Below are positions 2,280-25,755 of a stretch of 64,000 nt of DNA, one piece after another (position 1 is the first letter of the stretch; each line of letters begins with the position of its first letter). The position numbers and the translations under genes are program-made. Source of the stretch: Gammaproteobacteria bacterium (GTDB lineage: Bacteria; Pseudomonadota; Gammaproteobacteria; Steroidobacterales; Steroidobacteraceae); assembly GCA_034667965.1 (NCBI GenBank), contig JAXDQI010000256.1:6958-70957 (forward strand). The letters are read 5' to 3'. The notes below the pieces were generated by a model that saw only the letters and a list, made by a program, of their open reading frames with translations, ran no database searches and was not told where the DNA came from.

Positions 2280-3935
2280 ATGCGCGCTATGAATACTAAG
2301 TCACTGCTCGGGCAGGTCCTGCAAGGCGCAACGGTCGCCCTCGGGTCGATGCTCGCACTGTCCGCGCATGCGGCGGCACCCGGCATCACCGGGGCCTCCA
2401 ACGCGCCGGTCTTCAACCTGAACGCGGCGGCGATGCGCGTCACGCAGCCAAACGGCAAGAGCTTGTACTCTTGGGGCTACGGGTGCACCTCGACCACGGG
2501 CAATAGTTTCGCGCCCGCCTCGGTGCGGGGCGCCAACTGTCCGGCGGCGCAGCTGCCGGGACCCACCTTGATCGTCACCGAAGGCGACACGGTGACCGTC
2601 AATCTCACCAACGGACTGCCTGCAGCCGCGGGCGGCACGTCGATTCTCTTCCCCGGCTTCCAAGTGGCGACGTCGGGCGGCACCACGGGATTGCTGACTC
2701 AAGAGGCGCCGAGCCTGGCCTCGTGCGTCACCGGGGGCTGCAATACCGTGAAATACACCTTCACCGCCTCGACGCCGGGTACGCACTCCTACTACAGCGG
2801 AACCCAGGGCGACCTGCAGGTTGAGATGGGGATGTACGGCGCGCTCATCGTCCTGCCGAAAACCGTGCCGAGCAATTGCATTACCGGTGTCCTCGCCGCG
2901 AACAACGTCATTGCCGAAACGACCTCCGGGGAAAGCGATTTCCGTTTGGCGAAAGCGGCCTACGACCACCCGTCCACCTGCTACGACCGGGAATATCTGT
3001 TCCAGTTCTCCGAGATGGACGACAACATCCATAGTCAAGCCGAGGCGCAGGTTCTGGCCGATCAGCTGAAGGCCGTCGGTTCGCAATGCACGAACCCCAC
3101 GGGTTGCCTGGTGGTTGCCACCGAGCCTTATCTGCCGGACTACTACTTGGTCAACGGTCGTTCGATGCCGGACGACATGGACCCGAACTACATACCCATG
3201 TACCCGAATCAGCCGTACAACGGCAATCCGCACATGCATCCCGGCGAGCAGACGCTGGTGCGCATCATCGGCCAGGGCCGATGGCAGCATCCCTTCCACG
3301 AACACGCCAATCACGTGCGAGTGCTGGCCCGCGACGGCAATCTGTTGCTGAGCCCGCCGACGAATCCCAGCGATCCGACCAGCACGCTGCCCGCGGGTCC
3401 GCTCATGTTCACCACCACCACCACGCCGGGCATGACCATGGACGGCATCTTCTATTGGACGGGCCGGGGCCTCAATTGGGACGTGTTCGGGCATGACCCG
3501 TCGCTGGTCGATTCCAACACGAAGAAGCCCTTCGTTTGCGTCCCCGACACCAACGGCTATTTCACCAGCGACCCGACCGCGCCGAACTACTACGAGTGGT
3601 GCGGCGATCACAACAAGGCGCTCGAGAAGCATCCCTTCGGGCAGGTGGCCGCCGGCGGGCCGGTGACCTTGCCGGATCCGAACATCGTCGCGAACGGCAA
3701 CTGGTACGGCGGCAGCCCATACCTCGGAGGCGAAGCCACCGTTCGCGCGGTGGGCGGGACGCCAATCCCTCCCGCCGGCACCGTCGCCAATTCGCCTTCC
3801 GGCGAGGCGGGCTTCGCTTACATGTGGCACTCGCATAACGAGCGCGAGATCACGACGTCCAACGTTTTTCCGGGCGGGATGATGATGATGATGCTCGTCG
3901 ATCCACGTAGTTTCGCGATCGACGAAACGAATTGA
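2280..3935 (+). CDS. Secreted multicopper oxidase paralogue 2 (two HxH pairs, no type-1 Cys)
   Basis: 551-aa ORF starting 11 nt after MCO1, with a signal peptide (...GSMLALSAHAAAPG). The N-terminal cupredoxin-like domain lacks HxH (TSILFPGF, GTHSYYSG at the usual motif positions). The C-terminal domain has WQHPFHEH (nt 3282-3305), WHSH (nt 3825-3836) and then GGMMMMM. Confidence 0.85.
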   Translation: MRAMNTKSLLGQVLQGATVALGSMLALSAHAAAPGITGASNAPVFNLNAAAMRVTQPNGKSLYSWGYGCTSTTGNSFAPASVRGANCPAAQLPGPTLIVTEGDTVTVNLTNGLPAAAGGTSILFPGFQVATSGGTTGLLTQEAPSLASCVTGGCNTVKYTFTASTPGTHSYYSGTQGDLQVEMGMYGALIVLPKTVPSNCITGVLAANNVIAETTSGESDFRLAKAAYDHPSTCYDREYLFQFSEMDDNIHSQAEAQVLADQLKAVGSQCTNPTGCLVVATEPYLPDYYLVNGRSMPDDMDPNYIPMYPNQPYNGNPHMHPGEQTLVRIIGQGRWQHPFHEHANHVRVLARDGNLLLSPPTNPSDPTSTLPAGPLMFTTTTTPGMTMDGIFYWTGRGLNWDVFGHDPSLVDSNTKKPFVCVPDTNGYFTSDPTAPNYYEWCGDHNKALEKHPFGQVAAGGPVTLPDPNIVANGNWYGGSPYLGGEATVRAVGGTPIPPAGTVANSPSGEAGFAYMWHSHNEREITTSNVFPGGMMMMMLVDPRSFAIDETN

Positions 3936-3952: not shown

Positions 3953-6900
3953 ATGCACCTCTTTACATCCAAGACGAGCCGGCTGATCCCTGGATTGGCG
4001 GCTTTGGCTCTCCTGCTGACAGCGAATGCGTCGCAGGCGCAAACGGTCAATCTGACCGCCGCGCCCACCAGCACCACCTTGCCCGACGGGCAAAGTGTGC
4101 CCATGTGGGGATACCATTGCACTGACGCGGGCAGCAATGGCGCGACCTGCGCAGCGGCCAACCCGGCCGTGCAGACGGCCGGAACGGGCTGGTCGCCGAT
4201 CGTGATCACCGTGCCCTATGTGGGCACCGCCACGGCCTCGAGCACCAACCTCACGATCAGCCTCACCAACAACCTGACGTTCGCCGGCGGCAAGATTCCC
4301 ACGTCGCTTACCATCGTCGGTCAGTTGGGCGGCGGCCTCGGCGGCGGCGGCACCACCAGTGTGAGCCCGGTGCATGCCGGTCAGGGAGTTACGTGGCCCG
4401 CCGCGGATCCGACCACGACGTCGACGCCGCCGGCACAGATGCCGCGCGTGCAGTCCTTCGGCACCGAAGTGGCGGTTGGCGCGACGACTGCGCTCACCTG
4501 GAACAAGCTGCGGCCCGGCACCTATTTGATCGAGTCGGGAACACACCCCTCGATTCAAGCCCCCATGGGCCTGTACGGCATTCTGGTCGTCACCACCACC
4601 TCGACCACCCCGGCTCAGGCGTATCCCACGGTCGCGGGTCTGCCCGTCACCGCGCTTGCGGTTTCTCAATATGACGCGGACCTGCCGCTGGTGCTCAGTG
4701 AAATCGATCCGGTGCAGAACGCATCAGTCGCCACCGCGGTCGCCACGACCGGCTTCTTGGAGACGACGGTGTGGAGCGGCCTGCCGGGAAAATGCGGCAA
4801 TCCGCTGAAGGCGGATGGGACCGCCAACGCGAGCTTCAACACCTGCTATCCGCCGGCCGTGAATTACAGCCCGCGCTACTATCTCGTCAACGGCGTGTCG
4901 TTCGATCGGACCAAGATTGCGTCCTCCACGGCCCAGATCCTCCCGCTGCCCGCCACCGTGTCCACGGGCAACGTCATTCTGCGCTTCGCCAACGCGGGTC
5001 TGCGCATGCACATTCCCGCGGTCGTCAACCAGCCGATGACATTGATCGCCGAAGACGGCAACCCGTTGCCCGGTCAGCCGCGCATCCAGAACGAAGTCTT
5101 CATGGCCGCCGGTAAGACGTACGACGTCGAAGTGAAGCCCACGCAGACCTCGGGCGCGTACAGCGCCGCGACGCTCGCGCTCTTCGACCGTCAGTTGAGT
5201 CTCTCCACCAACAATCAGCGCGACGGCGGCATGCAGGCGTACATCGGCGTGGCCGGCGGCGCGACGACGGGTGCCGGGTCCGTCGGGTCCGGCGTGGCCC
5301 TGGGCGGCGTCGCCGCCAAGACTTTCTACTGCGTTTCCGGCACGACGTTGTCCGTGACCGACCCCACCAGCGGATTGTTGGGCGGGACCACCGGTGCGAA
5401 CGGCGTAGCCGCCACTCCGCCCCTCCTGGCCGGCTTGACCATTCAGTCGAACGGTACGTTCACCTATGTTCCGCCGGCCACCGGCGCCTGCGGCGGCAGC
5501 TTCACTTATCTCGTCAACAATTCGCAGTCGGTCACGTCGACCATCGCGCAGTGCGATGCCACCAGCAGTACCGCGACAGGCTGCACGGTGAGCGGCCAGG
5601 CGACCTTGGTCAACGACACCTTCACCGGCACCAACGCCAAGGTATTGGCCATCAGTCCGCCGGGCGTGCTGCTAAACGACATCAATCCCGACGGCCGTCC
5701 GCTGAGCGTGGATCCCGCTACGGTGCAGTCGAGCGGATTGGTGAGCCTCGCCGTCAGTGCGGACGGATCGTTCACAGCCGTGGCGCCCGCCGCGGGCACG
5801 TATACGTTTACCTATAACGTCACGAATTCCCAGCATACGAAGGGCATCGCGCCTGCGACGGTCACGCTGAACTTCCCCCAGGGCTCGGGGCTGAAGGTCA
5901 AATTGGTTGACCAGAAGCATCAGACGGACCCGACGTGGGACCTCGCCGACGCGACCAAGAAGGGCGATTACCGCTGGATCATCGAAGAGGATCGCACCTT
6001 CTGGATCGATCCGAAGTGTCAGGTCAACAGCGCCACGCGACCGAAGGATTCTTACGGCCGCGCCTGCCCGCCGACACCGGTCGAGGCACTGGGCTACAAC
6101 TTCCACACGGCTTCCATGCCGGTGGTGGCCACCGGCTGCGTCGGCAGCATCTCTTGCGAATCGGGGCAGACGGTTTTGGGCGTGGCCGCGGTTTGCGATG
6201 TGGGTGACGGCACCTGCCGCACTGACGCTACGCAGCGCACTGAGTTGACGCCGGATCAGGTGCACCTCGATCCCAACAAGCACTACTTCATCTCCATCAT
6301 GCCGGCCGACGGCATCAACCCGACCGTCAACGGTGCGGGCGGCCCGGTGCAGGTCAATGCGACTTGCGATCCGACCACGACGAACTGCGCCATGCGCCAG
6401 TTCGACGCCACGAAGGATTGTCCGACCCCCGCCGACTTTGCGCCGGGTAGCGGAGCGTGTGGCCACAACATGGGCGGCACGCAGATCGGACCGCAATTCC
6501 TGGCGGACGGCACGCCGACCCCCCCGTCGGTCACCATCTCGCTGGTGGAGACGCCGCTGCCTTCGGCGAAGATCGCGGTGTTGGTGTACGAGGATGACTA
6601 TCCTCTCAATGGCGAGAACGATGCCGGCGGCGGCGTCGACATACTGGCGCCGAATGAAGCCGGTCTCGGCGGCTTCCAGATCGAACTTCTGGACCAAGCC
6701 GGCGCCCTCGGCGACTCCACCGGGCAGATCACCTACGACATGTTCAACATGCCGGTGAGCAATGCGCTGGCCGGCACGCCCGATCCCAACAATCACATGC
6801 AGGACGCGTGCCCGCTCACCTCGAATCCCGACAACCTCGTCGGCAGAATCATCACCTGCCCAACCTACGAAGCCGACGGCACGACCCTGTCGCCGCTCGC

Positions 6901-9900
6901 CGGACAGGCGGTGATCGCGAATCTATACCCCGGCCTCTACGAGCCCCAAGCGTTCCCGGATGCCGACCGCATCGCTCGCGGTGAGGAATGGCTGCAGACC
7001 AACACACTCGACGGCGGCAAACCGCACGAGGCCTTCATCCGACCGGGCGAACCCGCCTACTTCCAGGAATTTGGCCCGGGTGGTTTCCACGTCCAGATCG
7101 GCTTCGCCAACCCGAAGATCATCAACGATCGGCGTCACAACTTGGCCGGCACCGGCATCTGCGATGCGGTCGCCACCGGCGGCGGCGGTTTGGCGTGCAA
7201 ATCGAGCATTTCCGGCCAGGTGCACGGCAACCATATGAGCCGTACGCCGGACGAACGCACCTATGACACGGGCAGCTACGACGCGTTTGCGTTCTCGGCC
7301 TGCTACGTGTCCGTCGGAGTTCCCGATGAACAGGACTTCGCCTTCGCGAAGTGCGATGCCGAGGGCAACTACTCGATGACGGGTCTGCCTAATGGCACGT
7401 ACAAACTGGCGGTGTTCGACCAGTGGAACGACATCATGCTCGACGGCCTCATCACCAGTGTGGTCGTCAACGGCAACACCGTCGTCAATCCGACAGCGAC
7501 CCAGTGGCGCACCAATATCTATACGCGCACTTATCTCGACTTGAACGGCAACGGCATCCCGGATCGTACGTGCGATGCCAATGGCAACTGCACCGATCTT
7601 GAACCCGGCGCCCCGTTGCTTCCCATACAGGTCCGTTATCGCGACGGCAGCATCGGCTTCAAGAACAACACCGACTTGAATGGTTACGCCACGTACAACG
7701 AGGTGTTCCCCTTCATGAACTGGCTGGTGGTCGAACCCGATCAGACCCGTTACAAGCCCACCGGCGAACACGTGGTCTATGACGCCGGCGGTCCGGACGA
7801 TTGCACCACGGGGGCGGCCAAGTGCTCCAACACCGCTGCGCACCTGGCGGGCACTCAGGAATTGGTTTCCCTGCCGTTGGACCTGCGTGTGCCGGGCGCC
7901 GTGTATTGCACGGATGCCGACTGCAGCGACCCCAACGAGTCGATTCTGCTGGGCGCATACAACACCAAGACGGTCGACACCAGCAAGAATCACAACATCA
8001 CCGCCGGGCTCTCCAGCGGCCGCATCGACCCGCCGTGGCATTCCGAAGGCTGGCAGGGCCTGCTGGGCCAGCACAGCTTCATCGACTTCGGCATGAAGCC
8101 CTTCGCTGCGCATGAGAACGGCGGAATCCAGGGTCTGGTCGTGTACTACTCGACCCGCCCCTTCGACGACCCGTCGCTCGACGTGCAGCTGGTATGGGAA
8201 CCGGGCGTGCCGAACGTGCAGATCAATCTGTACCAGGAAGGCACCGCGCCGGACGGTACGACGACGCTGACGCTGGTGGACACGACTCAGACCACGAGCT
8301 GGGACAAGTGGGCCCAGGGTTTCCAAACCGACGGTCACGGTAATCTGCGTAAGCTCGCCGACGGCAGCTACGTGCCCAACATGAACTGCCCGGGCCAGGA
8401 TCCGACCAGCGGCTTCTTTGCGACCCTGCAGGGCAGCAAGATGTGGCTGGACACGGCGGACTCCACCGGCAACAAGAAGCAGCTGGCCTACAACTCGCAA
8501 TTCAAATGCTATGACGGTTGGTCCCAGTTGAACCAGATCGTACCCGCACCGTACGACGGCAAGTACACGTTCCCGAGCACCGTCGAACTCGATCCGGTCA
8601 CCGGCCGTCCCGCAGGCTTAGGTTCGCTCAACGGCATCGCTACACCGTTGATCGGCACCAACTGCAACATCTGTGTCGCCAATCCCGACGACGGCACTCC
8701 GATGCTGCCCGCCGGCAAGTATGTGGTCGAGGCGGTCATGCCCACCGGCTTCGAGATCGTCAAGGAAGAAGACAAGAACATCCTCATGGGCGACATCTAC
8801 ATTGCGCCCGTCTCGCAGCAGTTCGCGGGTCTGGGCAACGTCTTCATCCTGCCCGACCAGGCGGCGGTCAACGCGTACTACAATGCGAACAATCCGCTCA
8901 ATTCGACCACCAACTTAGGCGTGTTGAACCCGCGCGAGGATTTTGCGAGCACGGATCAGATGTGGCCCTGCGTCGGTAAGACGCGCATCGTGCCGGATAC
9001 CATGAGCCTGTTCCCCACCGTCGGCCAGACGGCACCGTTCGCCGGCGCCTCGCGGCCGCTGTGCGACCGCAAGGAAGTTTCCCTGACCGATCAGACGGGA
9101 GTGAGCGCGCGGTTCTACGCGTTCACCAAGAACCATATCGCCGGCCACTTCGTCGGCGGCATGACCAACGACATGGCCTCGGAGTTCGACCCGTTCTCGC
9201 CGCAATTCGGTGAGAAGTTCGGTGTCCCGAACCTTCCCATCCGCATGCGCGACTTCATGGGCGACGAAGTGACCCGGGTGTACGGCGACCAGTGGGGCGC
9301 CTACAACGGACTTTACTTCTCGAGCTGGGAAGTCAATCCGCCGAACCCCACCGGCTATGCGCCGCAGATGTCGGTGGCTTGCATGAACGATCCGGGTCCG
9401 ATCCTGGATGCCGATCCGACGTCGCCCACGCATGGGCAGATGATCACCGACCCGGCGTACAACCCGGCGTACAGCAACTTCTGCTACGAGACGCCGTTCA
9501 TGCCGGGCTTCACCGCCTACATGGATACGCCGGTCACTCCGACGCAGGCCTTCGCGGACCACTACAATCTGCCGGACGCGGAATATCCCGACGGTACGCC
9601 GGTCATCAAGCGCGCCGACTTCACGGGCAACGGCTTCGGCGCGGGCGGCGCCGGCCCCTGGGCGCCCGGTACTGCCGGTATCGGCAGCATCACGGTCACC
9701 AACACGGGCAGCTACACCGCGGTTCCCACCGTCGGCTTCAACGGCGGCGGCGGCAGCGGTGCCGCGGCCAGCCCGCTCATGAGCATCGGTCAGCTGAATC
9801 TGGTCAGCGCCAGCGGCTCGTACACCAACATCGCGACACCGACTGCCACCTTCTCGGCGCCGCCGTGCACCATCAACGGCACCACCTGCGTACGGGCCGT

Positions 9901-12900
9901 CGGCACCGTGCGGATGTCGTCGAATACTCTGGGCAACGCGACGCGCCGCGTCACGGGCATCACTCTGGCGGGCGGCAATAACACGCCCGGCGTCGGCTAC
10001 ACCACGCCGCCCACGGTGACCTTCAGCACCGGACCCGCCAAAGCGACCACAACTCTGGGCGTGAGCAGTGTCACGGTGACCGCGCCGGGCAGCGGCTACA
10101 CCAGCGTGCCCAACGTGACATTCACCGCCGGTGCCAGCCTTGCGACGGCCACCGCCTCCCTGGGCGGCCCCAGCACGACGCTGCCGCTGGTGCTCACGGC
10201 CTTCGGCGATCGCCAGGTCCAGAATCCGCAATTCGCGGGTCCGTCCGCGATCACTGCGCCTTACAACCAGAAGACCGTCACCCGGCACTATGGCTTCGGC
10301 ACGCAGTGCGCGGCCATCAGCACCGGCTGTGCTGCGATCTCGAGCGTCACCGTCGCAGGTCAGCCGGCGACGATCACCGGCTGGTCGGACACGCAGATCA
10401 CGATTACCGTCCCGGCTCTGCCGCTGTGCTCGGTACAGCAGCGCAGCCTGGTGGCGAACGTGGCGAGCCCGTCGCCGGCCGGTTGCGGTGAAGTAGTGAT
10501 CACTGCGGGCAACGGCAAGCAGTCGATCGACGGCATCACCGTCACCGTGGGCGGCAACGCCACCTACGTGACCACGGCAAGCCAGACCTCCATGACGTGG
10601 GGCGAGATAGACAAGAACCCGTTGCAGACGGCGGTCGACAACGCGAAGCCCGGCGATCTCCTCATCATCGAGGCGGGTGCGTATCGCGAAAATCTGCTCA
10701 TGTGGAAGCCGGTACGCCTGCAGGGTGTCGGCGCCGGTTCCGTCACCATCAATGGAGACGCACAGCCTGCCGGCAAGATGGACTCCTGGCGCCGTCGCGT
10801 GAGCTGTCTGTTCGGTCTCACCATCCAGGGTGTGCCCAACAACGGCAATGCCGCGTATGACCCGGACAACCAGTACACTTGCCCCGCGGATCAGTACTTC
10901 CGCTCCGATCGGCTTCCCTTCGAGGGCTTCGTCGGCTGGGATGCCTCGAGCAACGGCAACCTGGCGCAGCTTCTGCAGGAACCGTCGCTGATGGGCGCCT
11001 ATGAAGGGGCGGGCATCACGGTGATTGGCCGCGGCGTGAATCAGCGAGGTTCCGGAAACACGGACCTGTGGGGTGTAGCGGGCGGCGCGGGAACCTTCCC
11101 GGACGGCAGCCGGTACGTGAGCCTGGCCGATTGCAGGCCGCCGGCCAGCACCGGCAGTACGGCGACCAGAAACATCAACGACTACGGCACCAGCAACTTC
11201 CTTTGCAACCCGTCGGCCATCGACGGCGTGAGCATCCTGAACAGTTCGCAGGGCGGCGGCGGTATCTACCTGCATGGTTGGAACCACAACATTCAGATCG
11301 CCAACACCCGCATCTCCGCGAACGCGGGAACCTTGTCGGGCGCGATCAATCTCGGCAGCGGTGAGACGCCGCCGGCGTTCACCGTCGACAACACGATCTG
11401 CGGCAACACGGGTGCGAACCCCACGCCGCTGTGTCCGCCGAGTGTGCCGAATGCGCAATTGCCCAATGTGCCGGCGACGTTGTTGAACGGGGAGATCCCA
11501 TTCCAGTTCAACACCAACGTGCACATTCATCACAACCAGATCCTGGACAACGCCTCGATCGGTGATGCGCTGTTCTCCGGCTCGCCGGCCGGTGCGGGTG
11601 GCGTGACCATCAGTGCGGGTTCGGACAACTACGAGCTGGACCACAACTGGATCGCGGCCAACCTGACCTCGAGCGACGGCGGCGGTGTGGCGCAAATGGG
11701 CGTGAGCTTCAATGGCAAGATTCACAACAACTTCGTGTTGTTCAATCAGGCCAATAATCCGACGCTCCCCGTCGACGGCGGCGGCATCATCATCATGGGC
11801 GCTCAGGAAGATCGCACCCTGCCGAGCGGTCAGGAATGCGGCGGCACCACCGACCTCGACTGCCCGCCGGGCATCGGCGACGGCACGGGTCCGGGTCTCG
11901 TGATCGATTCGAACCTGATTCTCGGCAACAGCGCCGAGGACGGCAGCGGCGGCGGCCTGCGCCTGCGGCAGACGAATGGTACCGAGGTCGCGGCCTTCCT
12001 CAAGAGCCCGCAGAACTGGTACGGCATCACCGTGACCAACAACATCATCGCGAACAACGTCGCGGGATGGGATGGCGGCGGCGTGTCCTTGCAGGATTCG
12101 TTCAAGACCGTGTTCACCAACAACACCGTGGCATCCAACGACACCACCGCGTCCGCGGGTGTGCTGTTCAAGACGCTGGGTGCGATCAGTGCCGCTTCGC
12201 CGCCTCCGGGATGCTTGCCGACTCCGGATCCGACGCAGCCGCAGAACCCGGCCTGCTTGCTGACGAATGGACCGCACATTCCGCAGCCGGCCGGTTTGGT
12301 GACCATGCAAAACACGCCGAACATGATGTCGCAGCTGCCGAGCGGCGTGGTCTGCCCGGCGGGCTTCGGCTACGGCACGACCAATCCCAACGGCACGGAA
12401 TCGAATCTGACCAACGGCCGTTGCGTGCTCGTCAGCCTGCCGCAGATCAACAATGATCTGTTCTGGCAGAACCGGGCGTTCCACGTCGAGATCGTCGACG
12501 CGAACGGCAATACGATCGCTTCGGGCAACTCGCCGCCCACGGGGACCGGCTTGAAATCAAATCAGAACCTCGTGGCGCTGCTGCCCGAGTTCACGCAGAG
12601 CTACACGGGTCAGTGCGTCACGCCGCCGGCAAGCCAAGAGTTGTATTGGGACGTCGGTGTGCGATGGGACCTGCTGCCGAACGGCCAAGGTCAAGCGCTG
12701 GTGTTCAACGCCGCAACGGTGGGCGCGGGATCCTACACGCCGGCCAACGGCGGCAGCGGGGTGTCTGCGAACCTCAATGACGCGGGTCCGATCGCGCTCT
12801 CGGCCTCCTATTCCATCTTCAGCGACGCGCTGAATATGGGAAATGTGAAGCCGGGATCCATGGGCAACATGGCGCCTTCCAAGACGCCGGTGATCGGCCA

Positions 12901-14152
12901 GTATTGCAACGGTGCACGCATACCGCCCGAGCAATGCGCCGCCGGCCAGGGTGCGAACGACCCCGGCATGTGCAAGGGCTACTTCACGCCGGCCGGCCAG
13001 TCGGAAACCGTCGGTGTCGCTCCGGTGTTCCAGTTCAACGGCATCGCGGCCAGCGCGACGGTGGACGAGGGCAATAACTGGATCAACATGACCTACGGCC
13101 CGTTGACTCTGAGCCGTCCGCCGTCTGCCGGTGCCGGTTCGACGCCGTCGGCCGAGCCGACGGTGGCCAGCGCCGCAGTGGGCATCGCACAGGGTGCTTA
13201 CTCGATCGCTTCCGATTCGGCCGCGGTCGGTGCCGGATATCCGACGGCGCCGGGTACGCCCAACCACGACTTCTACGGCCAGCCGCGGTCGACGTCGGGC
13301 GTGTCCATCGGTGCAGTGGAGTTTGCAGTGCCGCCGCCCACGCTGACGGCGATCACGCCGGCTGCGGGGGTGCAGGGGACGACCGTGGCGGTGACGCTCA
13401 CCGGCACCAATTTCACGGCCGGTAGCGTCGTTTTGGTCTCGGGCAACGGCATCAATCAGTTCGGTCTGGTTGAGGTGAGCGCAACGCAGCTCACGACGAA
13501 TATCCAGATCTCGGGGAGTGCAACCCTGGGTGCGCGGAACGTGACGGTATCGACTTCCGGCGGCGTTACCGCGCCGGTGACCTTCACCATCGTCGCCAAG
13601 CCGCCGGCGCCGACGCTGACGTCGATCTCGCCAAACTCCGGGACGCGCGGCTCGACCGTGACGGTTACCTTGACCGGCACGAACTTCTCGGCGGCCGGAT
13701 TGGCGGTGAACGTGAGCGGTTCAGGCGTGACGCCGATCAATGTCACCTATGTGAGCCCCACGCAGGTGAAGGCGGACTTCGTGATCGGTCCAAACGCGAA
13801 CACCAACAATAGAAACGTCACGGTCACCACGTCGGGGGGTACGAGCGGCTCAAGGACCTTTACGGTCTCGAACCCGCCGCGGCCGACGCTGGCGTCGATT
13901 GCTCCGACGGTGGGAACGCATGGCACGAACGTGACGGTGACCCTGACCGGCACCAACTTCACGTCGACGGGGACGTCCATCAATGTCACGGGCACCGGTG
14001 TGGTGGCGACCGTCACGTCCGTGACGCCGACGCAGATCGTCGCGACCTTCGCCATCACTTCGGGTGCGCTACACACTGCAAGGGCGGTCAATGTGACGAC
14101 GCCCGGAGGAACGAATGTGCAAAGCCAGAACCGCACGTTTACCGTCAACTGA
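3953..14152 (+). CDS. Giant (3399 aa) secreted multidomain protein: Cu-less MCO-like head, cadherin-like/VCBS-type repeats, Cna-B/SdrD-like modules, right-handed beta-helix, C-terminal IPT/TIG repeats
   Basis: Uninterrupted ORF with a signal peptide (...LLLTANASQAQ). The first ~430 aa align in pattern with MCO domains 1 and 2 (WGY..., GTYLIESGTHPSIQAPMGLYGILVV, YYLVNGVSFD...) but contain no HxH/HCH motif. Further modules are 'VLLNDINPDGRPLSV', 'YSMTGLPNGTYKLAVFD', GSGYTSVPNVTF-type repeats, beta-helix repeats (NNIIANNVAGWDGGGVSLQD, DHNWIAANLTSSDGGGV) and 3 x ~90-aa IPT/TIG repeats at the end. Confidence 0.9.
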   Translation: MHLFTSKTSRLIPGLAALALLLTANASQAQTVNLTAAPTSTTLPDGQSVPMWGYHCTDAGSNGATCAAANPAVQTAGTGWSPIVITVPYVGTATASSTNLTISLTNNLTFAGGKIPTSLTIVGQLGGGLGGGGTTSVSPVHAGQGVTWPAADPTTTSTPPAQMPRVQSFGTEVAVGATTALTWNKLRPGTYLIESGTHPSIQAPMGLYGILVVTTTSTTPAQAYPTVAGLPVTALAVSQYDADLPLVLSEIDPVQNASVATAVATTGFLETTVWSGLPGKCGNPLKADGTANASFNTCYPPAVNYSPRYYLVNGVSFDRTKIASSTAQILPLPATVSTGNVILRFANAGLRMHIPAVVNQPMTLIAEDGNPLPGQPRIQNEVFMAAGKTYDVEVKPTQTSGAYSAATLALFDRQLSLSTNNQRDGGMQAYIGVAGGATTGAGSVGSGVALGGVAAKTFYCVSGTTLSVTDPTSGLLGGTTGANGVAATPPLLAGLTIQSNGTFTYVPPATGACGGSFTYLVNNSQSVTSTIAQCDATSSTATGCTVSGQATLVNDTFTGTNAKVLAISPPGVLLNDINPDGRPLSVDPATVQSSGLVSLAVSADGSFTAVAPAAGTYTFTYNVTNSQHTKGIAPATVTLNFPQGSGLKVKLVDQKHQTDPTWDLADATKKGDYRWIIEEDRTFWIDPKCQVNSATRPKDSYGRACPPTPVEALGYNFHTASMPVVATGCVGSISCESGQTVLGVAAVCDVGDGTCRTDATQRTELTPDQVHLDPNKHYFISIMPADGINPTVNGAGGPVQVNATCDPTTTNCAMRQFDATKDCPTPADFAPGSGACGHNMGGTQIGPQFLADGTPTPPSVTISLVETPLPSAKIAVLVYEDDYPLNGENDAGGGVDILAPNEAGLGGFQIELLDQAGALGDSTGQITYDMFNMPVSNALAGTPDPNNHMQDACPLTSNPDNLVGRIITCPTYEADGTTLSPLAGQAVIANLYPGLYEPQAFPDADRIARGEEWLQTNTLDGGKPHEAFIRPGEPAYFQEFGPGGFHVQIGFANPKIINDRRHNLAGTGICDAVATGGGGLACKSSISGQVHGNHMSRTPDERTYDTGSYDAFAFSACYVSVGVPDEQDFAFAKCDAEGNYSMTGLPNGTYKLAVFDQWNDIMLDGLITSVVVNGNTVVNPTATQWRTNIYTRTYLDLNGNGIPDRTCDANGNCTDLEPGAPLLPIQVRYRDGSIGFKNNTDLNGYATYNEVFPFMNWLVVEPDQTRYKPTGEHVVYDAGGPDDCTTGAAKCSNTAAHLAGTQELVSLPLDLRVPGAVYCTDADCSDPNESILLGAYNTKTVDTSKNHNITAGLSSGRIDPPWHSEGWQGLLGQHSFIDFGMKPFAAHENGGIQGLVVYYSTRPFDDPSLDVQLVWEPGVPNVQINLYQEGTAPDGTTTLTLVDTTQTTSWDKWAQGFQTDGHGNLRKLADGSYVPNMNCPGQDPTSGFFATLQGSKMWLDTADSTGNKKQLAYNSQFKCYDGWSQLNQIVPAPYDGKYTFPSTVELDPVTGRPAGLGSLNGIATPLIGTNCNICVANPDDGTPMLPAGKYVVEAVMPTGFEIVKEEDKNILMGDIYIAPVSQQFAGLGNVFILPDQAAVNAYYNANNPLNSTTNLGVLNPREDFASTDQMWPCVGKTRIVPDTMSLFPTVGQTAPFAGASRPLCDRKEVSLTDQTGVSARFYAFTKNHIAGHFVGGMTNDMASEFDPFSPQFGEKFGVPNLPIRMRDFMGDEVTRVYGDQWGAYNGLYFSSWEVNPPNPTGYAPQMSVACMNDPGPILDADPTSPTHGQMITDPAYNPAYSNFCYETPFMPGFTAYMDTPVTPTQAFADHYNLPDAEYPDGTPVIKRADFTGNGFGAGGAGPWAPGTAGIGSITVTNTGSYTAVPTVGFNGGGGSGAAASPLMSIGQLNLVSASGSYTNIATPTATFSAPPCTINGTTCVRAVGTVRMSSNTLGNATRRVTGITLAGGNNTPGVGYTTPPTVTFSTGPAKATTTLGVSSVTVTAPGSGYTSVPNVTFTAGASLATATASLGGPSTTLPLVLTAFGDRQVQNPQFAGPSAITAPYNQKTVTRHYGFGTQCAAISTGCAAISSVTVAGQPATITGWSDTQITITVPALPLCSVQQRSLVANVASPSPAGCGEVVITAGNGKQSIDGITVTVGGNATYVTTASQTSMTWGEIDKNPLQTAVDNAKPGDLLIIEAGAYRENLLMWKPVRLQGVGAGSVTINGDAQPAGKMDSWRRRVSCLFGLTIQGVPNNGNAAYDPDNQYTCPADQYFRSDRLPFEGFVGWDASSNGNLAQLLQEPSLMGAYEGAGITVIGRGVNQRGSGNTDLWGVAGGAGTFPDGSRYVSLADCRPPASTGSTATRNINDYGTSNFLCNPSAIDGVSILNSSQGGGGIYLHGWNHNIQIANTRISANAGTLSGAINLGSGETPPAFTVDNTICGNTGANPTPLCPPSVPNAQLPNVPATLLNGEIPFQFNTNVHIHHNQILDNASIGDALFSGSPAGAGGVTISAGSDNYELDHNWIAANLTSSDGGGVAQMGVSFNGKIHNNFVLFNQANNPTLPVDGGGIIIMGAQEDRTLPSGQECGGTTDLDCPPGIGDGTGPGLVIDSNLILGNSAEDGSGGGLRLRQTNGTEVAAFLKSPQNWYGITVTNNIIANNVAGWDGGGVSLQDSFKTVFTNNTVASNDTTASAGVLFKTLGAISAASPPPGCLPTPDPTQPQNPACLLTNGPHIPQPAGLVTMQNTPNMMSQLPSGVVCPAGFGYGTTNPNGTESNLTNGRCVLVSLPQINNDLFWQNRAFHVEIVDANGNTIASGNSPPTGTGLKSNQNLVALLPEFTQSYTGQCVTPPASQELYWDVGVRWDLLPNGQGQALVFNAATVGAGSYTPANGGSGVSANLNDAGPIALSASYSIFSDALNMGNVKPGSMGNMAPSKTPVIGQYCNGARIPPEQCAAGQGANDPGMCKGYFTPAGQSETVGVAPVFQFNGIAASATVDEGNNWINMTYGPLTLSRPPSAGAGSTPSAEPTVASAAVGIAQGAYSIASDSAAVGAGYPTAPGTPNHDFYGQPRSTSGVSIGAVEFAVPPPTLTAITPAAGVQGTTVAVTLTGTNFTAGSVVLVSGNGINQFGLVEVSATQLTTNIQISGSATLGARNVTVSTSGGVTAPVTFTIVAKPPAPTLTSISPNSGTRGSTVTVTLTGTNFSAAGLAVNVSGSGVTPINVTYVSPTQVKADFVIGPNANTNNRNVTVTTSGGTSGSRTFTVSNPPRPTLASIAPTVGTHGTNVTVTLTGTNFTSTGTSINVTGTGVVATVTSVTPTQIVATFAITSGALHTARAVNVTTPGGTNVQSQNRTFTVN
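13331..14149 (+). repeat. Three tandem ~270-273 bp coding repeats (IPT/TIG-like Ig domains) at the 3' end of the giant gene
   Basis: Repeat starts at ~13331 (PPPTLTAITPAAGVQGTTVAVTLTGTNFTAG), ~13601 (PPAPTLTSISPNSGTRGSTVTVTLTGTNFSAAG) and ~13874 (PPRPTLASIAPTVGTHGTNVTVTLTGTNFTSTG). Confidence 0.85.
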
Positions 14153-14161
14153 GCAGGTGGC

Positions 14162-14662
14162 GTGCCAGGACGCCGCAATCCGATGGAGACTGCAGGAATG
14201 AGTGGGTGCAGGAGAAAGTCCATGGGCGGTCGGCTCGCGTCGATCGCGGCCATCGTGCTCGTCGCAGCCGCCTCGAGCGTCGCGGCCGGCTCGAGCGTCG
14301 CAGCCGGCTCGAGCGCGGCAGCACCTCCGTCTGCGCGCGTTCGCGCCGGCGGATCGTTGCAGCACCGAGTCGACGTCCTTTCCAGAGCACTGCAACTCGA
14401 TGCGCGGCAGCGGGCCGAACTGCTGACCATTCTCGAACGCCAGCGCCAGACCGTCACCAAGATCTGGAGCGACCCTGCGTTGCTTCCTGCCGAGCGTACG
14501 CCCGCGACCCGCGCGCTTCAGGAGCGCACCGCGGACCAGATCCGAGCCATCCTCTCGGAGGAGCAGAGAAATCGGTACAACCCACCGAAACCGAAGGACG
14601 CCGCGCCGCCGTCGCCGAACGTGGCAGACTGGATGCAGACGCAGGCGCGGCAGCAGCAGTAG
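14162..14662 (+). CDS. Small secreted protein, possibly LTXXQ/Spy-CpxP-like periplasmic chaperone or metal-stress protein
   Basis: 166-aa ORF. The start is more likely ATG 14222 (MGGRLASIAAIVLVAAA..., a signal peptide). The helical body has LxxxQ-type motifs (LDARQRAELLTILERQ, ILSEEQRNRY). The family call is tentative. Confidence 0.5.
   Translation: MPGRRNPMETAGMSGCRRKSMGGRLASIAAIVLVAAASSVAAGSSVAAGSSAAAPPSARVRAGGSLQHRVDVLSRALQLDARQRAELLTILERQRQTVTKIWSDPALLPAERTPATRALQERTADQIRAILSEEQRNRYNPPKPKDAAPPSPNVADWMQTQARQQQ
14261..14314 (+). repeat. 18-bp x 3 tandem repeat (GTCGCRGCCGSCTCGAGC) encoding (VAA[A/G]SS)3
   Basis: Read directly at 14261-14278, 14279-14296 and 14297-14314. It lies in the signal-peptide/N-terminal region of the 14162-14662 ORF. 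Confidence 0.8.
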
Positions 14663-14684
14663 TAGGGACATCAGGAGACTTCGT

Positions 14685-14948
14685 ATGTTGCGAATCGATC
14701 AAATCATCGGCGCTTGCGGCGTCACCGCTGCATTAGTCGCAGCGACTTTCCTGGCGATGCCGGCGCGGGCGGAGGCGCCCTTGCCGACTGCGCCGTCCGC
14801 GGTGACGAAGAAGAAAGTCGTGTCGCCGTATGCGCGCGCCGCGGCGCAGCATGAACGGGTCGGAGAGGCCCCGGTGGGTCACGCTCCGACCAGGGTGCAG
14901 GGAATGGGCAAGCCGCATAAACCGCATGCAGGCGCGCCACGCAAATGA
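14685..14948 (+). CDS. Small secreted hypothetical protein (87 aa)
   Basis: Signal-peptide-like N-terminus (...AALVAATFLAMPARAEA) and a basic His/Pro-rich tail (GKPHKPHAGAPRK). It is co-directional, and its stop overlaps the next start (14945). Confidence 0.45.
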   Translation: MLRIDQIIGACGVTAALVAATFLAMPARAEAPLPTAPSAVTKKKVVSPYARAAAQHERVGEAPVGHAPTRVQGMGKPHKPHAGAPRK

Positions 14949-15433
14949 ACATTCGCGCGGGCCTCGTATTCTGCTGCGTCCTGTCCTCTGCGTCTCTGGC
15001 GCAGGCACCCGCGCCAGGGTCCGCGGCTTTGCCGCCCGCCAACCACGCCGGCAAGACTTCGCCCTATCACGGCATGAAGTTGAGCGAAAAGGCGCGCGCG
15101 TACTATCCCGCGGCCTGGGGCGTCGATCATCTGCGGGTGAGCTACACCTCGTCCGGCAATCTGATTCGCTTCAGCTACCGGGTGTTGGAGCCCAAGCTGG
15201 CGAGGGCGCTCGGCGACCACGAGTCGACGCCCTACCTGTACGCGCCGCGATCGCATGCCATGCTGCAAGTACCTACGATGGAAAAGATCGGCCAACTCAG
15301 GCAGCTCAATGCCGCCGAGGCCAACAAGGAATACTGGATGGCGTTCTCCAACAAAGGCAATCTCGTGCGTCCCGGTGAACGGGTCAACGTGATCATCGGA
15401 AAATTTCATGCCGACGGCATGCTCGTCGAGTAA
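14945..15433 (+). CDS. Secreted hypothetical protein (162 aa)
   Basis: Signal peptide (MNIRAGLVFCCVLSSASLAQA) and a 4-nt overlap with the preceding ORF. No family was recognised. Confidence 0.55.
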   Translation: MNIRAGLVFCCVLSSASLAQAPAPGSAALPPANHAGKTSPYHGMKLSEKARAYYPAAWGVDHLRVSYTSSGNLIRFSYRVLEPKLARALGDHESTPYLYAPRSHAMLQVPTMEKIGQLRQLNAAEANKEYWMAFSNKGNLVRPGERVNVIIGKFHADGMLVE

Positions 15434-15459
15434 TCATCATGTGCTCTAGAGGATCAACC

Positions 15460-16269
15460 ATGAATCGTGTTTCCCTATTTGCTGGCTGCCTGCTGTCGCT
15501 GGGCGCTGCCGCCAACAGCCCTGTCATCGCCGCCGCGGCGGCCACGCACGCTCCGGCGTCACTAAGCGTCGACCAGATCGTAGAGCGCAATGTCGCGGCG
15601 CACGGCGGCCTTGCCGCCTGGCGGGCTGCGAAAACCCTGACCATCGCCGGTGAAATGGACGCCGGCGGCAAGCCGAATCATGCGCTGCCGTTCGTGCTCA
15701 AGGAGAAGCGCCCGCGCAAGAGCCGGCTCGAGATCGTGTTCAAGGATCAAACGTCGGTTCAGGTGTACGACGGCGCCCAGGGCTGGAAAGTGCGTCCGTT
15801 CCTCAACCGCAACGAAGTCGAAACCTATACCGCGGCCGAAATCAAATCTGCCGCAGCGGATCAGGATCTCGACGGTCCGCTGGTGGACTATGCGGCGAAG
15901 GGCACGCAGATCGCGCTCGCCGGCTCCGAGGCGGTGGAGGGGCACCGGGCCTACAAGCTGAAACTCACGCTGCGCAATGGCGACAAGCGGAACCTGTGGA
16001 TCGATGCCGGTACGTACCTCGAACTCAAGATGCAGGGCGAGCCACGCAAGCTCGATGGCCGACTGCATAATGTCGCCGTCTATTTCCGCGATTACAAGAC
16101 CGAGCACGGGCTCACCACTGCGCGGCTGCAGGAAACCGCCGTCGAGGGCGTGAAGCAAACCTATAAAATGACTATTTCCCGCGTGGCGGTGAACGAGCCC
16201 CTGGACGATTCCCTGTTCCAGAGGCCGCAGCTCGCGGCGCTTGCGACGCCGGGCCCCACGCAGCACTAG
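15460..16269 (+). CDS. LolA-like / outer-membrane lipoprotein-sorting-like protein, paralogue 1
   Basis: Start chosen at ATG 15460 (GAGGA 6 nt upstream), giving MNRVSLFAGCLLSLGAAANS. 'SVDQIVERNVAAHGGLAAWRAAKTLTIAGEM' resembles the N-terminal signature of the LolA_like family. It is paralogous to the next ORF. Confidence 0.6.
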   Translation: MNRVSLFAGCLLSLGAAANSPVIAAAAATHAPASLSVDQIVERNVAAHGGLAAWRAAKTLTIAGEMDAGGKPNHALPFVLKEKRPRKSRLEIVFKDQTSVQVYDGAQGWKVRPFLNRNEVETYTAAEIKSAAADQDLDGPLVDYAAKGTQIALAGSEAVEGHRAYKLKLTLRNGDKRNLWIDAGTYLELKMQGEPRKLDGRLHNVAVYFRDYKTEHGLTTARLQETAVEGVKQTYKMTISRVAVNEPLDDSLFQRPQLAALATPGPTQH

Positions 16270-16270
16270 C

Positions 16271-19550: not shown

Positions 19551-19750
19551 CAATGGTCCCTTTGCCGACTCCGCGAGCCGCCAGCATGGCACCAGGGCGC
19601 CCGGATCGCTTACCCGATACTACTTAATGCGAGGAGGAAAGTAGGTAGATTGTCCAAAAGTCCTTGTTGGTGCCAGGGTGGTCCAGTACCCTAATTTGCG
19701 TCAGGGCACGCGTCTCGCGTCGGGCACCGCATCTTTTCGAGAGGATCACG

Positions 19751-20488: not shown

Positions 20489-20490
20489 CG

Positions 20491-20889: not shown

Positions 20890-20915
20890 TCCGTCCGGGC
20901 GCTGCGCGCCCGTCT

Positions 20916-22798: not shown

Positions 22799-22804
22799 GC
22801 CACC

Positions 22805-23985: not shown

Positions 23986-23989
<4 letters not shown>
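22805..23989 (+). CDS. gspF: GspF/PilC-family inner-membrane platform protein
   Basis: 394 aa with a GTG start. It has the duplicated T2SSF pattern (two cytoplasmic helical domains, each followed by TM segments), e.g. IFSQELVSLLDAGLSLVEAIEAL and LYRTVGMLLRSGMPAVTAM. Confidence 0.85.

Positions 23990-25735
<1,746 letters not shown>

Positions 25736-25755
<20 letters not shown>

Follow-up and report, generated by a model that had tools for sequence, protein, structure and literature searches.

A giant protein with an oxidase-like, predicted copper-less head encoded beside two multicopper oxidases in a Steroidobacteraceae bacterium

Genes of the locus

The analysed window (the whole stretch of 64,000 nt) carries on its forward strand, one after the other, the genes for MCO1 (434..2269; 611 aa), MCO2 (2280..3935; 551 aa) and a giant protein of 3399 aa (3953..14152), whose open reading frame is intact and has a ribosome-binding site, AGGAG, located 8 nt upstream of its ATG codon. 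The giant gene is followed by the gene for a small conserved secreted protein of 162 aa (14945..15433, forward strand), which shares 57% identity with a 167-aa Ralstonia protein that has a lipobox-like N-terminus. Further downstream come the genes for two LolA-like paralogues (15439..16269 and 16241..17110, forward strand; Pfam LolA_like, 27 bits, cut-off 30), and the pair is conserved in 36 loci, also in L013 and L083. The next forward gene (17110..18786) encodes a protein that combines a signal peptide with a single haem motif (CVNCH) and a domain resembling periplasmic binding proteins; its likeness to MofC was judged against the description in PMC5566968. An FKBP-type peptidyl-prolyl isomerase resembling MofB lies on the reverse strand (18783..19592; Pfam FKBP_C, E-value 3e-21; FKBP_N, E-value 6e-17), and a LuxR-type response regulator (19664..20488) and a receiver-only regulator (20491..20889) form a forward-strand pair at 19664..20889. 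Open reading frames 14206..14736, 14830..15378, 18771..19532 and 20799..21686 were rejected as genes because of their Arg-rich translations and comparisons with related loci, which place them in the wrong frame or on the wrong strand.

A type II secretion system of an atypical kind is encoded at 22316..31106 (forward strand) and comprises GspG, GspF, GspE, four unassigned ORFs, a secretin and a pseudopilin. The secretin (28276..30627, forward strand) bears a TPR region at its N-terminus and a cohesin-like domain at its C-terminus. GspG scores above its equivalog cut-off, and GspE, GspF and the secretin fall under theirs. Counted with 10 kb on each side of a locus, the secretion genes adjoin the cluster in about 20 of 83 loci; in Ralstonia the same genes are located directly upstream of MCO1. 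With its signal-peptide-like N-terminus and the secretion genes nearby in the window, the giant is a candidate type II substrate.

The N-terminus of the giant, MHLFTSKTSRLIPGLAALALLLTANASQA followed by QT, looks by eye like a Sec-type signal peptide (aa 1–29, 3953..4039, forward strand, with ASQA before the junction). It is kept in the orthologue consensus and agrees with the signal peptide described in the earlier note. Comparison with three orthologues gave a dN/dS of about 0.18–0.20, with the minimum in the head and the middle core, which indicates that the gene is under purifying selection. The C-terminal ...TFTVN is the natural end of six orthologues too (L003, L004, L051, L056, L065 and L078), so the giant gene, whose product was noted previously to end abruptly, is not truncated. 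On these sequence comparisons, the giant is a real, widely conserved protein that is predicted to be secreted.

Domains of the giant protein

The N-terminal head (aa 30–433, 4040..5251, forward strand) was identified by AlphaFold2, Foldseek and hhalign as two cupredoxin domains and a linker. Its AlphaFold2 model (pLDDT, 81.7; pTM, 0.80) matches CueO and laccases with a Foldseek probability of 1.0 and an E-value of 1e-15, and two-domain oxidases and nitrite reductases with target-normalised TM-scores of 0.64–0.66 (3g5w, 0.66; 5zl1, 0.64); per target length, 3g5w and a nitrite reductase give the best superposition. The two Greek-key barrels of the head thus superpose on oxidase structures, and Pfam Cu-oxidase (PF00394) matches aa 307–408 with 21.8 bits (cut-off, 21). 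No HxH was found in aa 1–480 of the giant and no HCH in the whole protein, the head has only five His residues, and the motif series of a catalytic multicopper oxidase (HxH, HxH, HxxHxH, HCHxxxH...M) is lacking in the giant. The model, the Pfam match and the motif search agree with the earlier description of an oxidase-like head of about 430 aa devoid of HxH and HCH, and the doubt whether this region folds as cupredoxin is answered by a model with two such domains.

Profile comparison by hhalign aligned aa 31–374 of the giant with MCO2 (probability, 99.6%; E-value, 1e-23), the similarity running from domain 1 through the linker into the beginning of domain 2. In this alignment H353, opposite H337 of MCO2, is the only placeable ligand position that the head keeps. 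Within the head, H141, H198, H353 and several Met residues are at least 90% conserved, and the dN/dS of the head (0.15–0.19) makes it second only to the middle core in constraint. Judging from the model and the profile alignments, the head is a two-cupredoxin, predicted copper-less paralogue of the adjacent MCO2.

Adhesin-type modules follow the head. Two Ig-like domains (Big_9 / cadherin-like) occupy aa about 459–640 (5327..5872, forward strand); Pfam Big_9 matches two stretches with an E-value of 8e-7, the better at 551–638, and the Pfam match to Cadherin_5 is sub-threshold; these are the cadherin-like repeats proposed earlier. The conserved core (aa 650–1900, about 1250 aa; 5900..9652, forward strand) is an array of beta-sandwiches of the Cna-B / SdrD-B / prealbumin type that is specific to the family of the giant. 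Its SdrD/Cna-B profile match is below the cut-off (15.5 against 29.7 bits); the Cna-B/SdrD-like modules suspected from the sequence were confirmed by the AlphaFold2 model of aa 650–1849 (pLDDT, 69.6; pTM, 0.73), for which Foldseek returned SdrD B domains, TIE, BcpA, CnaB2 and MG domains of alpha-2-macroglobulin. The core loops are acidic and Ca-binding-like, the cysteines are paired, many D, G, P, W and C columns of the alignment are invariant, and the dN/dS is 0.12–0.15. Fold and acidic loops are shared with Gram-positive Cna-B / SdrD-type adhesins and pilins, whereas the giant occurs in a Gram-negative bacterium, has no LPXTG sorting signal (it has the Cna-B-type fold and is not an LPXTG-anchored MSCRAMM), and its core is non-repetitive, conserved across phyla and fused to an oxidase-like head. 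Across phyla, the middle core and the beta-helix align with about 50–60% identity to the window sequence, a degree of conservation that appears unusual in an adhesin stalk.

A variable region with G-x-G-Y-T-x-x-P-x-V-T-F repeats follows (aa about 1905–2060; 9665..10132, forward strand). The run of repeats noticed previously exists, and it is shorter than was thought: there are just two clean copies, at aa 2013 and 2046, and, by eye, two degenerate copies upstream of them. A tandem-repeat finder did not detect protein-level repeats of the giant. The region has a dN/dS of 0.27–0.32 and is largely unmatched in many orthologues. A single IPT/TIG-like domain (aa about 2130–2215; 10340..10597, forward strand), noted earlier as an isolated module, is indeed a conserved domain, with full tblastn coverage in essentially all loci that reach that far and a TIG match in 4 of 30 orthologue segments.

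The putative right-handed, pectate-lyase-like beta-helix (aa about 2220–3110; 10610..13282, forward strand) was recognized by weak profile matches. Beta_helix scores 20.6–23.1 bits in the giant, below the cut-off of 25.9, and matches 17 of 30 orthologues at E ≤ 0.01; the NosD N-terminal cap is matched in 28 of 30, and a choice-of-anchor Q domain in 7 of 30, the window protein itself being unmatched. Membership of NosD was rejected, the match being limited to a 46-residue N-terminal cap. Compared with solved structures by sequence, the beta-helix profile found no match and the whole giant nothing useful. The C-terminal module (13298..14149, forward strand) is variable and consists of the three IPT/TIG repeats reported before, now matched in three stretches by NCBIfam CoaZ_rpt_PGGG (NF058597; 68 bits, cut-off 30) and by Pfam TIG. 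The C-termini vary among the orthologues and end in Ig-type domains. The GYT and TIG repeats are, judging from such variation, dispensable parts of the giant.

The C-terminal repeats pass the cut-off for a choice-of-anchor Z repeat; unlike in choice-of-anchor Z and Q proteins, no anchor follows these domains, either in the giant or in the 59 intact orthologues. Regular expressions found no RTX (GGxGxD), LPXTG or PEP motif in the giant, and scans against Pfam (E ≤ 1) and NCBIfam (E ≤ 0.01) revealed no PEP-CTERM, T9SS, autotransporter, two-partner secretion or RTX family, in line with the earlier statement that none of these signals is present.

Oxidase neighbours, orthologues and relatives

MCO1 consists of a signal peptide, an N-terminal extension, a cupredoxin domain 1 and a copper-less domain 2. 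Domain 1 combines a complete blue-copper (T1) site with four His residues of the trinuclear cluster; the ligands (H243/H246/H248, H288-C289-H290, H296 and M299/M301) are invariant in 74–75 of 75 orthologues, and Pfam Cu-oxidase_3 and Cu-oxidase_2 both match aa 204–311. By sequence, the closest solved relatives are domain 1 of the two-domain oxidases 3g5w, 2zwn, 9cck and 3gdc, with copper nitrite reductases also among the nearest. In hhalign comparisons, MCO1 195–443 aligns with MCO2 76–301, i.e., domain 1 and the linker (96%), and domain 2 of MCO1 aligns with domain 2 of the head (67%). The N-terminal region of MCO1, about 190 aa, has no domain assignment. MCO2 has the opposite arrangement: a copper-less domain 1, a ligand-bearing domain 2 of about 265 aa and a Met-rich tail (MMMMM). 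Its domain 2 has invariant H337/H340/H342 and H517-S518-H519, the blue-copper Cys being replaced by Ser, and further invariant His residues at H318, H320 and H345. Domain 1 of MCO1 and domain 2 of MCO2 therefore carry complementary, invariant half-sets of trinuclear-cluster ligands, four His each.

The best 80 loci contain 59 intact orthologues of the giant (2644–3802 aa), all with the order head, Ig, core, IPT and beta-helix, which is the head-plus-beta-helix order that the earlier note had suggested looking for in other genomes. In a species-genome collection, at least 510 of 599 matching stretches encode a relative of the giant, and the head family forms 204 clusters at E ≤ 1e-30; in all long proteins so matched, the head lies close to the N-terminus. 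MCO1 is present in 75 and MCO2 in 79 of 82 giant loci, the gaps being mostly contig ends or frameshifted assemblies, and the gene order MCO1-MCO2-giant is almost invariant. The taxa include the plant pathogen Ralstonia solanacearum, Paraburkholderia, Burkholderia, Collimonas and many soil heterotrophs, as well as autotrophic iron/sulfur oxidisers (Gallionellaceae, with locus L013 carrying the same cluster, Sulfuricella and Thiobacillaceae). Homologue searches were run with the head and the middle core separately and gave fragments only, up to about 840 and 2270 aa, respectively. Apparent 750-aa head proteins were rejected as a shorter architecture, since tblastn identified them as pieces of frameshifted or truncated giant genes. 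In public databases the proteins are named 'hypothetical' or 'Ig-like domain-containing', often as fragments of 500–2000 aa, and one orthologue is called 'choice-of-anchor Q domain-containing protein' by NCBI. Because of such names and fragment records the family is easily missed.

The family and cluster type are not new, having been described in the iron oxidiser Sideroxydans (PMC12016527; PMC5566968). He et al. 2017 (PMC5566968) noted 'three tandem MCO genes' in Sideroxydans lithotrophicus ES-1, and Keffer et al. 2025 (PMC12016527) detected the products of Slit_1816-1818 by proteomics, in larger amounts with magnetite than with Fe(II)-citrate. The larger protein, Slit_1816, is devoid of oxidase motifs and contains domains resembling adhesins and polysaccharide lyases; clusters of this kind were listed for Paraburkholderia, Ralstonia and Steroidobacteraceae (PMC12016527), which are taxa found here. 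As in the window, Slit_1812-1818 encodes two copper-motif oxidases and a much larger, motif-less cupredoxin protein with adhesin-like and beta-helix (polysaccharide-lyase-like) domains, all three predicted to be extracellular, with small hypothetical proteins and a cytochrome downstream. The giant fits the description of Slit_1816, the likeness being drawn from the paper's description and taxon list and not from an alignment; with the Gallionellaceae MCO2 as query, Ralstonia, Paraburkholderia and others were matched and ES-1 was not, and the best 80 loci of the genome scan do not include ES-1. Unlike the window, in which no SCO1/SenC gene was found, ES-1 has such a gene, whereas the FKBP isomerase, the two LolA-like genes and the adjacent secretion system of the window are unmentioned in PMC12016527. 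A literature search on Ralstonia work with this cluster found nothing relevant.

Extracellular oxidases of other bacteria offer a further comparison. MofA of Leptothrix is, like the window oxidases, encoded with an FKBP isomerase (MofB) and a protein combining a cytochrome c with a binding-protein domain (MofC), and the multicopper protein OmpB of Geobacter is a substrate of a type II secretion system of an atypical kind (Mehta 2006, cited in PMC5566968). Likened here by description, MofA and OmpB differ from MCO1 and MCO2 in being single large oxidases with all copper motifs, and no copper-less giant partner has been described for them.

A possible tethered oxidase and its alternatives

The two-domain multicopper oxidases form ring-shaped trimers, with each copper cluster placed where domain 1 of a subunit meets domain 2 of its neighbour. 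Members such as 3g5w (the blue copper oxidase of Nitrosomonas europaea), mgLAC (2zwn), SLAC and, among copper nitrite reductases, NirK share their two-cupredoxin unit with MCO1, MCO2 and the head, and their blue copper is in domain 1, as in MCO1, whose domain 1 resembles theirs most. MCO1, MCO2 and the head may all derive from such oxidases. The sole active interface would then join domain 1 of MCO1 (blue copper and four His) to domain 2 of MCO2 (four His, Cys to Ser), and the head would complete the ring as a third, silent subunit, fixing the oxidase to about 2900 further residues of Ig, beta-sandwich and beta-helix. Known members are homotrimers with three equal active interfaces, whereas one active and two silent interfaces, made by three genes, are proposed here, with one subunit fused to a long arm. 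A literature search for heterotrimeric two-domain oxidases returned nothing relevant; the one heterotrimer found combines two forms of a single gene's product, one of which has an additional cupredoxin domain. Ceruloplasmin is a ring of six cupredoxin domains with one trinuclear cluster at one interface. The proposed ring follows the same logic, the likeness being one of architecture, whereas ceruloplasmin is a eukaryotic single polypeptide with three blue-copper sites.

We infer the ring from the paralogy of three two-domain subunits (hhalign), from conserved ligands confined to a single domain 1 and a single domain 2, and from the known quaternary structure of the relatives. The suggestion of the earlier note that the head docks MCO1 and MCO2 gains indirect support from the MCO2 paralogy, the synteny, the ligand half-sets and the two-domain relatives of MCO1; the sheath or mineral-nucleating fibre proposed there is speculative. 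The best explanation, to which we give a little less than an even chance, is that the giant serves as the large scaffold subunit in a secreted copper oxidase system of several proteins, and the same near-balance applies to the view, based on sequence and analogy, that it links the two neighbouring oxidases to each other and to a long binding arm. The fuller picture of a three-gene, ceruloplasmin-like ring of six cupredoxin domains, with one blue-copper and one trinuclear centre, tethered to the arm and served by its own type II system, is held only tentatively. The large domain 2 of MCO2 with its extra His residues and the N-terminal region of MCO1 mean that a simple two-domain ring may be wrong, and MCO1 and MCO2 might be active as a pair without the head. 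Under the proposed scheme, the three proteins would cross the inner membrane via Sec, be matured in the periplasm by the FKBP isomerase and the MofC-like cytochrome, and leave the cell through the atypical type II system encoded in the cluster; the conserved arm would attach to a solid or a polymer and thereby place oxidation at that surface. The best candidate substrate is Fe(II) or Mn(II) in the solid phase, since the proteins of the best-fitting Sideroxydans cluster are induced on magnetite. The family is also common in heterotrophic soil bacteria and occurs in a plant pathogen, thus iron-mineral oxidation may not be its general function.

Other explanations concern the gene itself and the way its product is held. 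The window has a GC content of 63–65% and contains long spurious ORFs, such as 8915..12484 on the reverse strand, and the giant gene is frameshift-split in some long-read metagenome loci, as would suit a pseudogene or a chance ORF. This reading is opposed by the purifying selection, the 59 intact orthologues, the confident models of the head and of aa 650–1849 and the proteomic detection of a Sideroxydans protein that fits the description of the giant; we regard it as already refuted and its probability as negligible. Retention of the giant at the surface by the cohesin-like C-terminus of the secretin, as the earlier note had envisaged, is conceivable for a protein with no anchor of its own; Pfam Cohesin matches aa 654–755 of the secretin (E-value, 2e-7), and the extension is kept in 11–12 related loci. 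Yet Pfam reveals no dockerin family in the giant at E ≤ 1, its single DLNGNGIPD loop being read here as part of the SdrD-B-like region, and the cohesin-like part is undetectable in the Ralstonia, Trinickia and Gallionellaceae clusters, all of which have the same giant. This kind of retention is accordingly very improbable.

Two further readings accept the protein and give it another role. The adhesin-type modules behind the head would suit an independent binding protein whose head is a recycled cupredoxin fold, not assembled with MCO1 and MCO2 and co-located by co-regulation only; the conserved H141, H198, H353 and Met residues of the head could form a different site. The near 1:1:1 co-occurrence and strict gene order across phyla argue against it, as do the specific paralogy of the head with MCO2 instead of a generic cupredoxin, its place among the two most constrained parts of the giant, and the fact that MCO1 and MCO2, each with half a cluster in a family of trimers, leave room for a third subunit. 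We find this reading unlikely, though less so than the notion that the giant is itself the main enzyme, whose beta-helix, as a polysaccharide lyase or hydrolase, would attack plant cell walls or exopolysaccharide, with carbohydrate-binding beta-sandwiches and oxidases that assist, e.g., by oxidising phenolics. Such an enzyme would explain the conserved beta-helix (39–88% identity across the 59 orthologues), the wording polysaccharide-lyase-like of Keffer et al. (PMC12016527), the putative carbohydrate-binding proteins among the Foldseek matches of the core and the presence of the cluster in R. solanacearum and many soil heterotrophs. However, Pfam and NCBIfam assign no lyase or hydrolase family, just a generic beta-helix and the NosD cap, no solved enzyme is matched by the beta-helix sequence, the autotrophic iron/sulfur oxidisers that have the cluster would be unlikely to target plant polymers, and the copper-less head is left unexplained, which makes a polymer-active enzyme improbable.

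The cluster is present in several hundred species genomes of several phyla, including cultured and genetically tractable Paraburkholderia, Burkholderia, Collimonas and Ralstonia solanacearum. If the reading of three subunits with split ligands is true, it would represent a heteromeric two-domain multicopper oxidase of a kind for which no report was found, and would show an oxidase naturally joined to a long binding arm. A tethered, surface-acting oxidase would then be widespread in soil Proteobacteria, Acidobacteria and iron oxidisers, and would be a candidate for the oxidation, away from the cell, of solid-phase Fe(II)/Mn(II) or insoluble organic polymers, the former being consistent with the magnetite induction in Sideroxydans.

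A conserved giant gene and its orthologues

The giant gene (3953..14152, plus strand) encodes a protein of 3399 aa and carries an AGGAG ribosome-binding site 8 nt 5′ of the ATG. In public data the protein is MEA3108822.1, "hypothetical protein QOI88_3427", from a Gammaproteobacteria metagenome-assembled genome. Its nearest relatives, with head identity of 84–86%, are found in Steroidobacteraceae and Gammaproteobacteria genomes. A scan of one genome per species revealed at least 510 stretches that code for relatives. Among the 80 best loci, which were fetched, are those of cultured Burkholderia, Paraburkholderia, Collimonas, Trinickia and an Acidobacteria isolate, as well as of metagenome-assembled genomes assigned to Acidobacteriota, Verrucomicrobiia, Binatia, Tepidisphaeraceae and Actinomycetota. 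In 59 loci the orthologue is intact (2644–3802 aa). The dN/dS of the giant against three orthologues is 0.18–0.20, with minima in the head and middle core (0.12–0.19) and maxima in the GYT and TIG repeats (0.27–0.44). These dN/dS values and the intact orthologues argue for a genuine gene and against a pseudogene, which by the earlier note would have refuted its reading, and the giant is a real, conserved, secreted protein. The search for orthologues with the same head-plus-beta-helix order, proposed in that note, was positive: the head, Ig domains, core (aa 650–1950), IPT module and beta-helix are colinear in nearly all loci of sufficient length, and the GYT region and terminal repeats are often replaced or matched in part only.

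An exhaustive search of representative sequences yielded a head family of 204 clusters (E-value ≤ 1 × 10−30), and the head match lies near the N-terminus in every long protein that has one. Short "head proteins" in the databases were considered as a possible shorter architecture and rejected, as they are pieces of frameshifted or truncated giant genes. The gene is broken across two or three frames in six loci from long-read metagenome assemblies (L001, L002, L018, L026, L073 and L075), and such frame-splitting explains why many public "proteins" of 500–2000 aa resemble a shorter architecture. Antisense to the giant gene run ORFs of up to 1189 aa (e.g., 8915–12484, minus strand); we attribute them to the 63–65% G–C content and do not regard them as genes. 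One Gammaproteobacteria contig, CAWCYX010000021.1, carries two giant copies about 118 kb apart (L003 and L007), with heads 86% and 62% identical to that of the window, and therefore paralogous clusters can coexist in one genome.

Modules of the giant protein

The modules noticed in the earlier note were for the most part recovered. The N-terminus is signal-peptide-like, as was reported. The proposed multicopper oxidase-like head without copper motifs agrees with a Pfam Cu-oxidase match (aa 307–408, barely over the cut-off), and a motif search found no HxH in the head and no HCH in the whole giant. The AlphaFold2 model of aa 1–480 (pLDDT 81.7, pTM 0.80) folds as cupredoxin domains and matches multicopper oxidases in Foldseek (E-value, 1 × 10−15), the best fits per target length being the two-domain oxidase 3g5w (TM 0.66) and the nitrite reductase 5zl1 (TM 0.64). 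The cadherin-like modules were identified by Pfam as Big_9 and cadherin-like Ig domains. The predicted Cna-B/SdrD-like modules were upheld by structure but not by sequence, where the SdrD_B match is under threshold. The middle core model (AlphaFold2, aa 650–1849; pLDDT 69.6, pTM 0.73) matches SdrD B domains, the TIE protein, BcpA pilin, CnaB2, DUF3823-type sandwiches and alpha-2-macroglobulin MG domains, and the core is thus read as an array of beta-sandwiches. Compared with adhesin stalks, the core is unusual in being non-repetitive and highly conserved: orthologous cores are about 50–60% identical to that of the window, with numerous columns of invariant Asp, Gly, Pro, Trp and Cys. The giant holds 60 Cys, most in close pairs, a pattern that fits an oxidising compartment. 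The run of G-x-G-Y-T repeats comprises two clean copies and, by eye, two degenerate ones, fewer than the earlier note implied.

The three TIG repeats reported at the C-terminus were found by Pfam, and they also pass the NCBIfam "choice-of-anchor Z" cut-off. Motif searches detected no RTX, LPXTG or PEP motif, and no anchor family was reported in Pfam or NCBIfam scans, in line with the first reading. The absence of an anchor is a trait of the family. The last module of an orthologue is a TIG repeat, another Ig-type domain or the beta-helix itself.

Split copper ligands in three paralogues

One of the cupredoxin domains of the oxidase MCO1 (434..2269, plus strand, 611 aa) contains HTVHFH and HCHIAPPEHLQMGM, which supply a blue-copper site plus four cluster His. 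In its neighbour MCO2 (2280..3935, plus strand, 551 aa), no copper ligands were found in the first domain, and HPFHEH and HSH in the second supply four cluster His, with the blue-copper Cys replaced by Ser. The ligand residues of both proteins are invariant in 73–75 of 75 orthologues. The half-sets are complementary, with HxxHxH and HCH in MCO1 domain 1 and HxxHxH and HSH in MCO2 domain 2, and neither protein seems sufficient on its own for a complete copper cluster. Additional invariant His occur in MCO2 (H318, H320 and H345, within aa 318–345), as does a conserved Met-rich tail (GGMMMMMLVD, aa 534–538); both go beyond the needs of a standard trinuclear cluster and might contribute a further site for a metal or a substrate.

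Profile comparison aligned the head with MCO2 from domain 1 across the linker into the beginning of domain 2 (99.6%; E-value, 1 × 10−23), MCO1 residues 195–443 (copper domain) with MCO2 residues 76–301 (domain 1 and linker; 96%), and the copper-less domain 2 of MCO1 with head domain 2 (67%). From these three correspondences it follows that the head, MCO1 and MCO2 are paralogues built on one two-domain plan, with copper ligands in domain 1 only of MCO1, in domain 2 only of MCO2 and in neither domain of the head. The closest solved relatives of MCO1 by sequence are domain 1 of the two-domain oxidases 3g5w (E-value, 9 × 10−14), 2zwn, 9cck and 3gdc, followed by copper nitrite reductases. Two-domain oxidases are trimers, in which the trinuclear cluster is formed by four His of domain 1 and four His of the neighbour's domain 2.

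Gene neighbourhood and the proposed oxidase complex

MCO1 precedes the giant in 75 of 82 loci and MCO2 in 79 of 82, most exceptions to the MCO1-MCO2-giant order being contig ends or frameshifted assemblies. About 20 of 83 loci have secretion genes immediately 5′ of MCO1. In Ralstonia solanacearum the secretion system comes first, followed by MCO1, MCO2, the giant (2819 aa), the small protein and a LolA-like protein. In the window, the 790-nt gap after the giant holds an ORF (14162–14662) with a hydrophobic N-terminus and a weak LTXXQ/Metal_resist (CpxP/Spy-like) match (E-value, 0.006–0.017), whose status as a gene is uncertain. The gene directly after the giant encodes a small conserved secreted protein (14945..15433, 162 aa), a possible outer-membrane lipoprotein because its Ralstonia orthologue (L083, 20079–20582) has a lipobox-like N-terminus (LGAC); if so, it may hold the giant at the surface. 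Two tandem LolA-like paralogues (15439–17110) follow, as they do after the giant in 36 loci and also in Ralstonia and Gallionellaceae. A MofC-like protein with one CVNCH haem motif and a binding-protein-like domain (17110–18786, plus strand) is convergent with an FKBP isomerase (18783–19592, minus strand), a pairing like that of Leptothrix mofB/mofC beside the Mn-oxidase candidate mofA.

Two response regulators (19664–20889) adjoin a divergent gene (20916–22088, minus strand) that immediately precedes the secretion genes and encodes an AAA ATPase with a fused FHA domain. Between GspE and the secretin, four ORFs (25736–28276; 271, 177, 224 and 179 aa) without a Pfam or NCBIfam match hold the position of assembly-platform genes and are kept in 5, 8, 11 and 11 related loci, respectively, at more than half coverage. 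The secretin (28276–30627) carries TPR repeats at its N-terminus and a cohesin-like domain at its C-terminus (aa 654–755). The former were detected in 12 related loci, with a weak signal in Ralstonia, the latter in 11–12 loci only. The earlier suggestion that the cohesin-like domain retains the giant is not borne out: a Pfam scan reported no dockerin in the giant, and several lineages that possess this cluster lack the cohesin-like domain or show no detectable trace of it. A PAS histidine kinase is encoded at 31959–33329. Farther on lie SufS, SufD and SufB (38293–43130, minus strand), then aldolase, DapA-like and PEP synthase-like housekeeping genes, which indicates an ordinary chromosomal setting.

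For Sideroxydans lithotrophicus ES-1, He et al. 2017 listed "three tandem MCO-coding genes" together with a mofC-like gene and one for a copper chaperone, drawing no functional inference for the tandem genes (PMC5566968). Keffer et al. 2025 found that the Slit_1812–1818 proteins of this strain reach higher levels with magnetite than with Fe(II)-citrate. Canonical oxidase motifs are present in Slit_1817 and Slit_1818 and absent from Slit_1816, which is much larger and has domains resembling adhesins and polysaccharide lyases; similar clusters were reported from Paraburkholderia, Ralstonia, Anaeromyxobacter and Steroidobacteraceae (PMC12016527). Since this description and taxon list match our findings, the giant is probably a new member of the Slit_1816 family, noticed before and uncharacterised. 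Our literature search turned up no report of the split ligand sets, the head-MCO2 paralogy, the linked secretion system or a three-gene two-domain oxidase.

That the giant is an independent adhesin seems rather unlikely. A polymer-active beta-helix enzyme is more doubtful still. The putative beta-helix described in the earlier note is matched weakly by the Beta_helix profile and the NosD N-terminal cap, and its profile has no match to solved structures by sequence. Docking of the MCO1/MCO2 pair by the head, as first proposed, appears plausible, with indirect support from the head-MCO2 paralogy, the gene order and the complementary half-sets. Our preferred reading, quite possible though by no means assured, is that the giant acts both as scaffold and as silent third subunit in a heteromeric copper oxidase that is secreted. 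An MCO1-MCO2-head ring would be the simplest assembly using every domain, with one active interface and two silent ones, much as the six-domain ring of ceruloplasmin combines one active interface with silent ones. In that case the head would be not merely a dock but a structural subunit tying the oxidase to the arm, i.e., the modules behind it. Shewanella outer-membrane cytochromes offer one precedent for export by such a secretion system. Synteny, together with the precedent of Geobacter OmpB (PMC5566968), suggests that the adjacent system would export this complex. For the family, the high conservation of the arm suggests that its target may be a common one and not a host-specific receptor.
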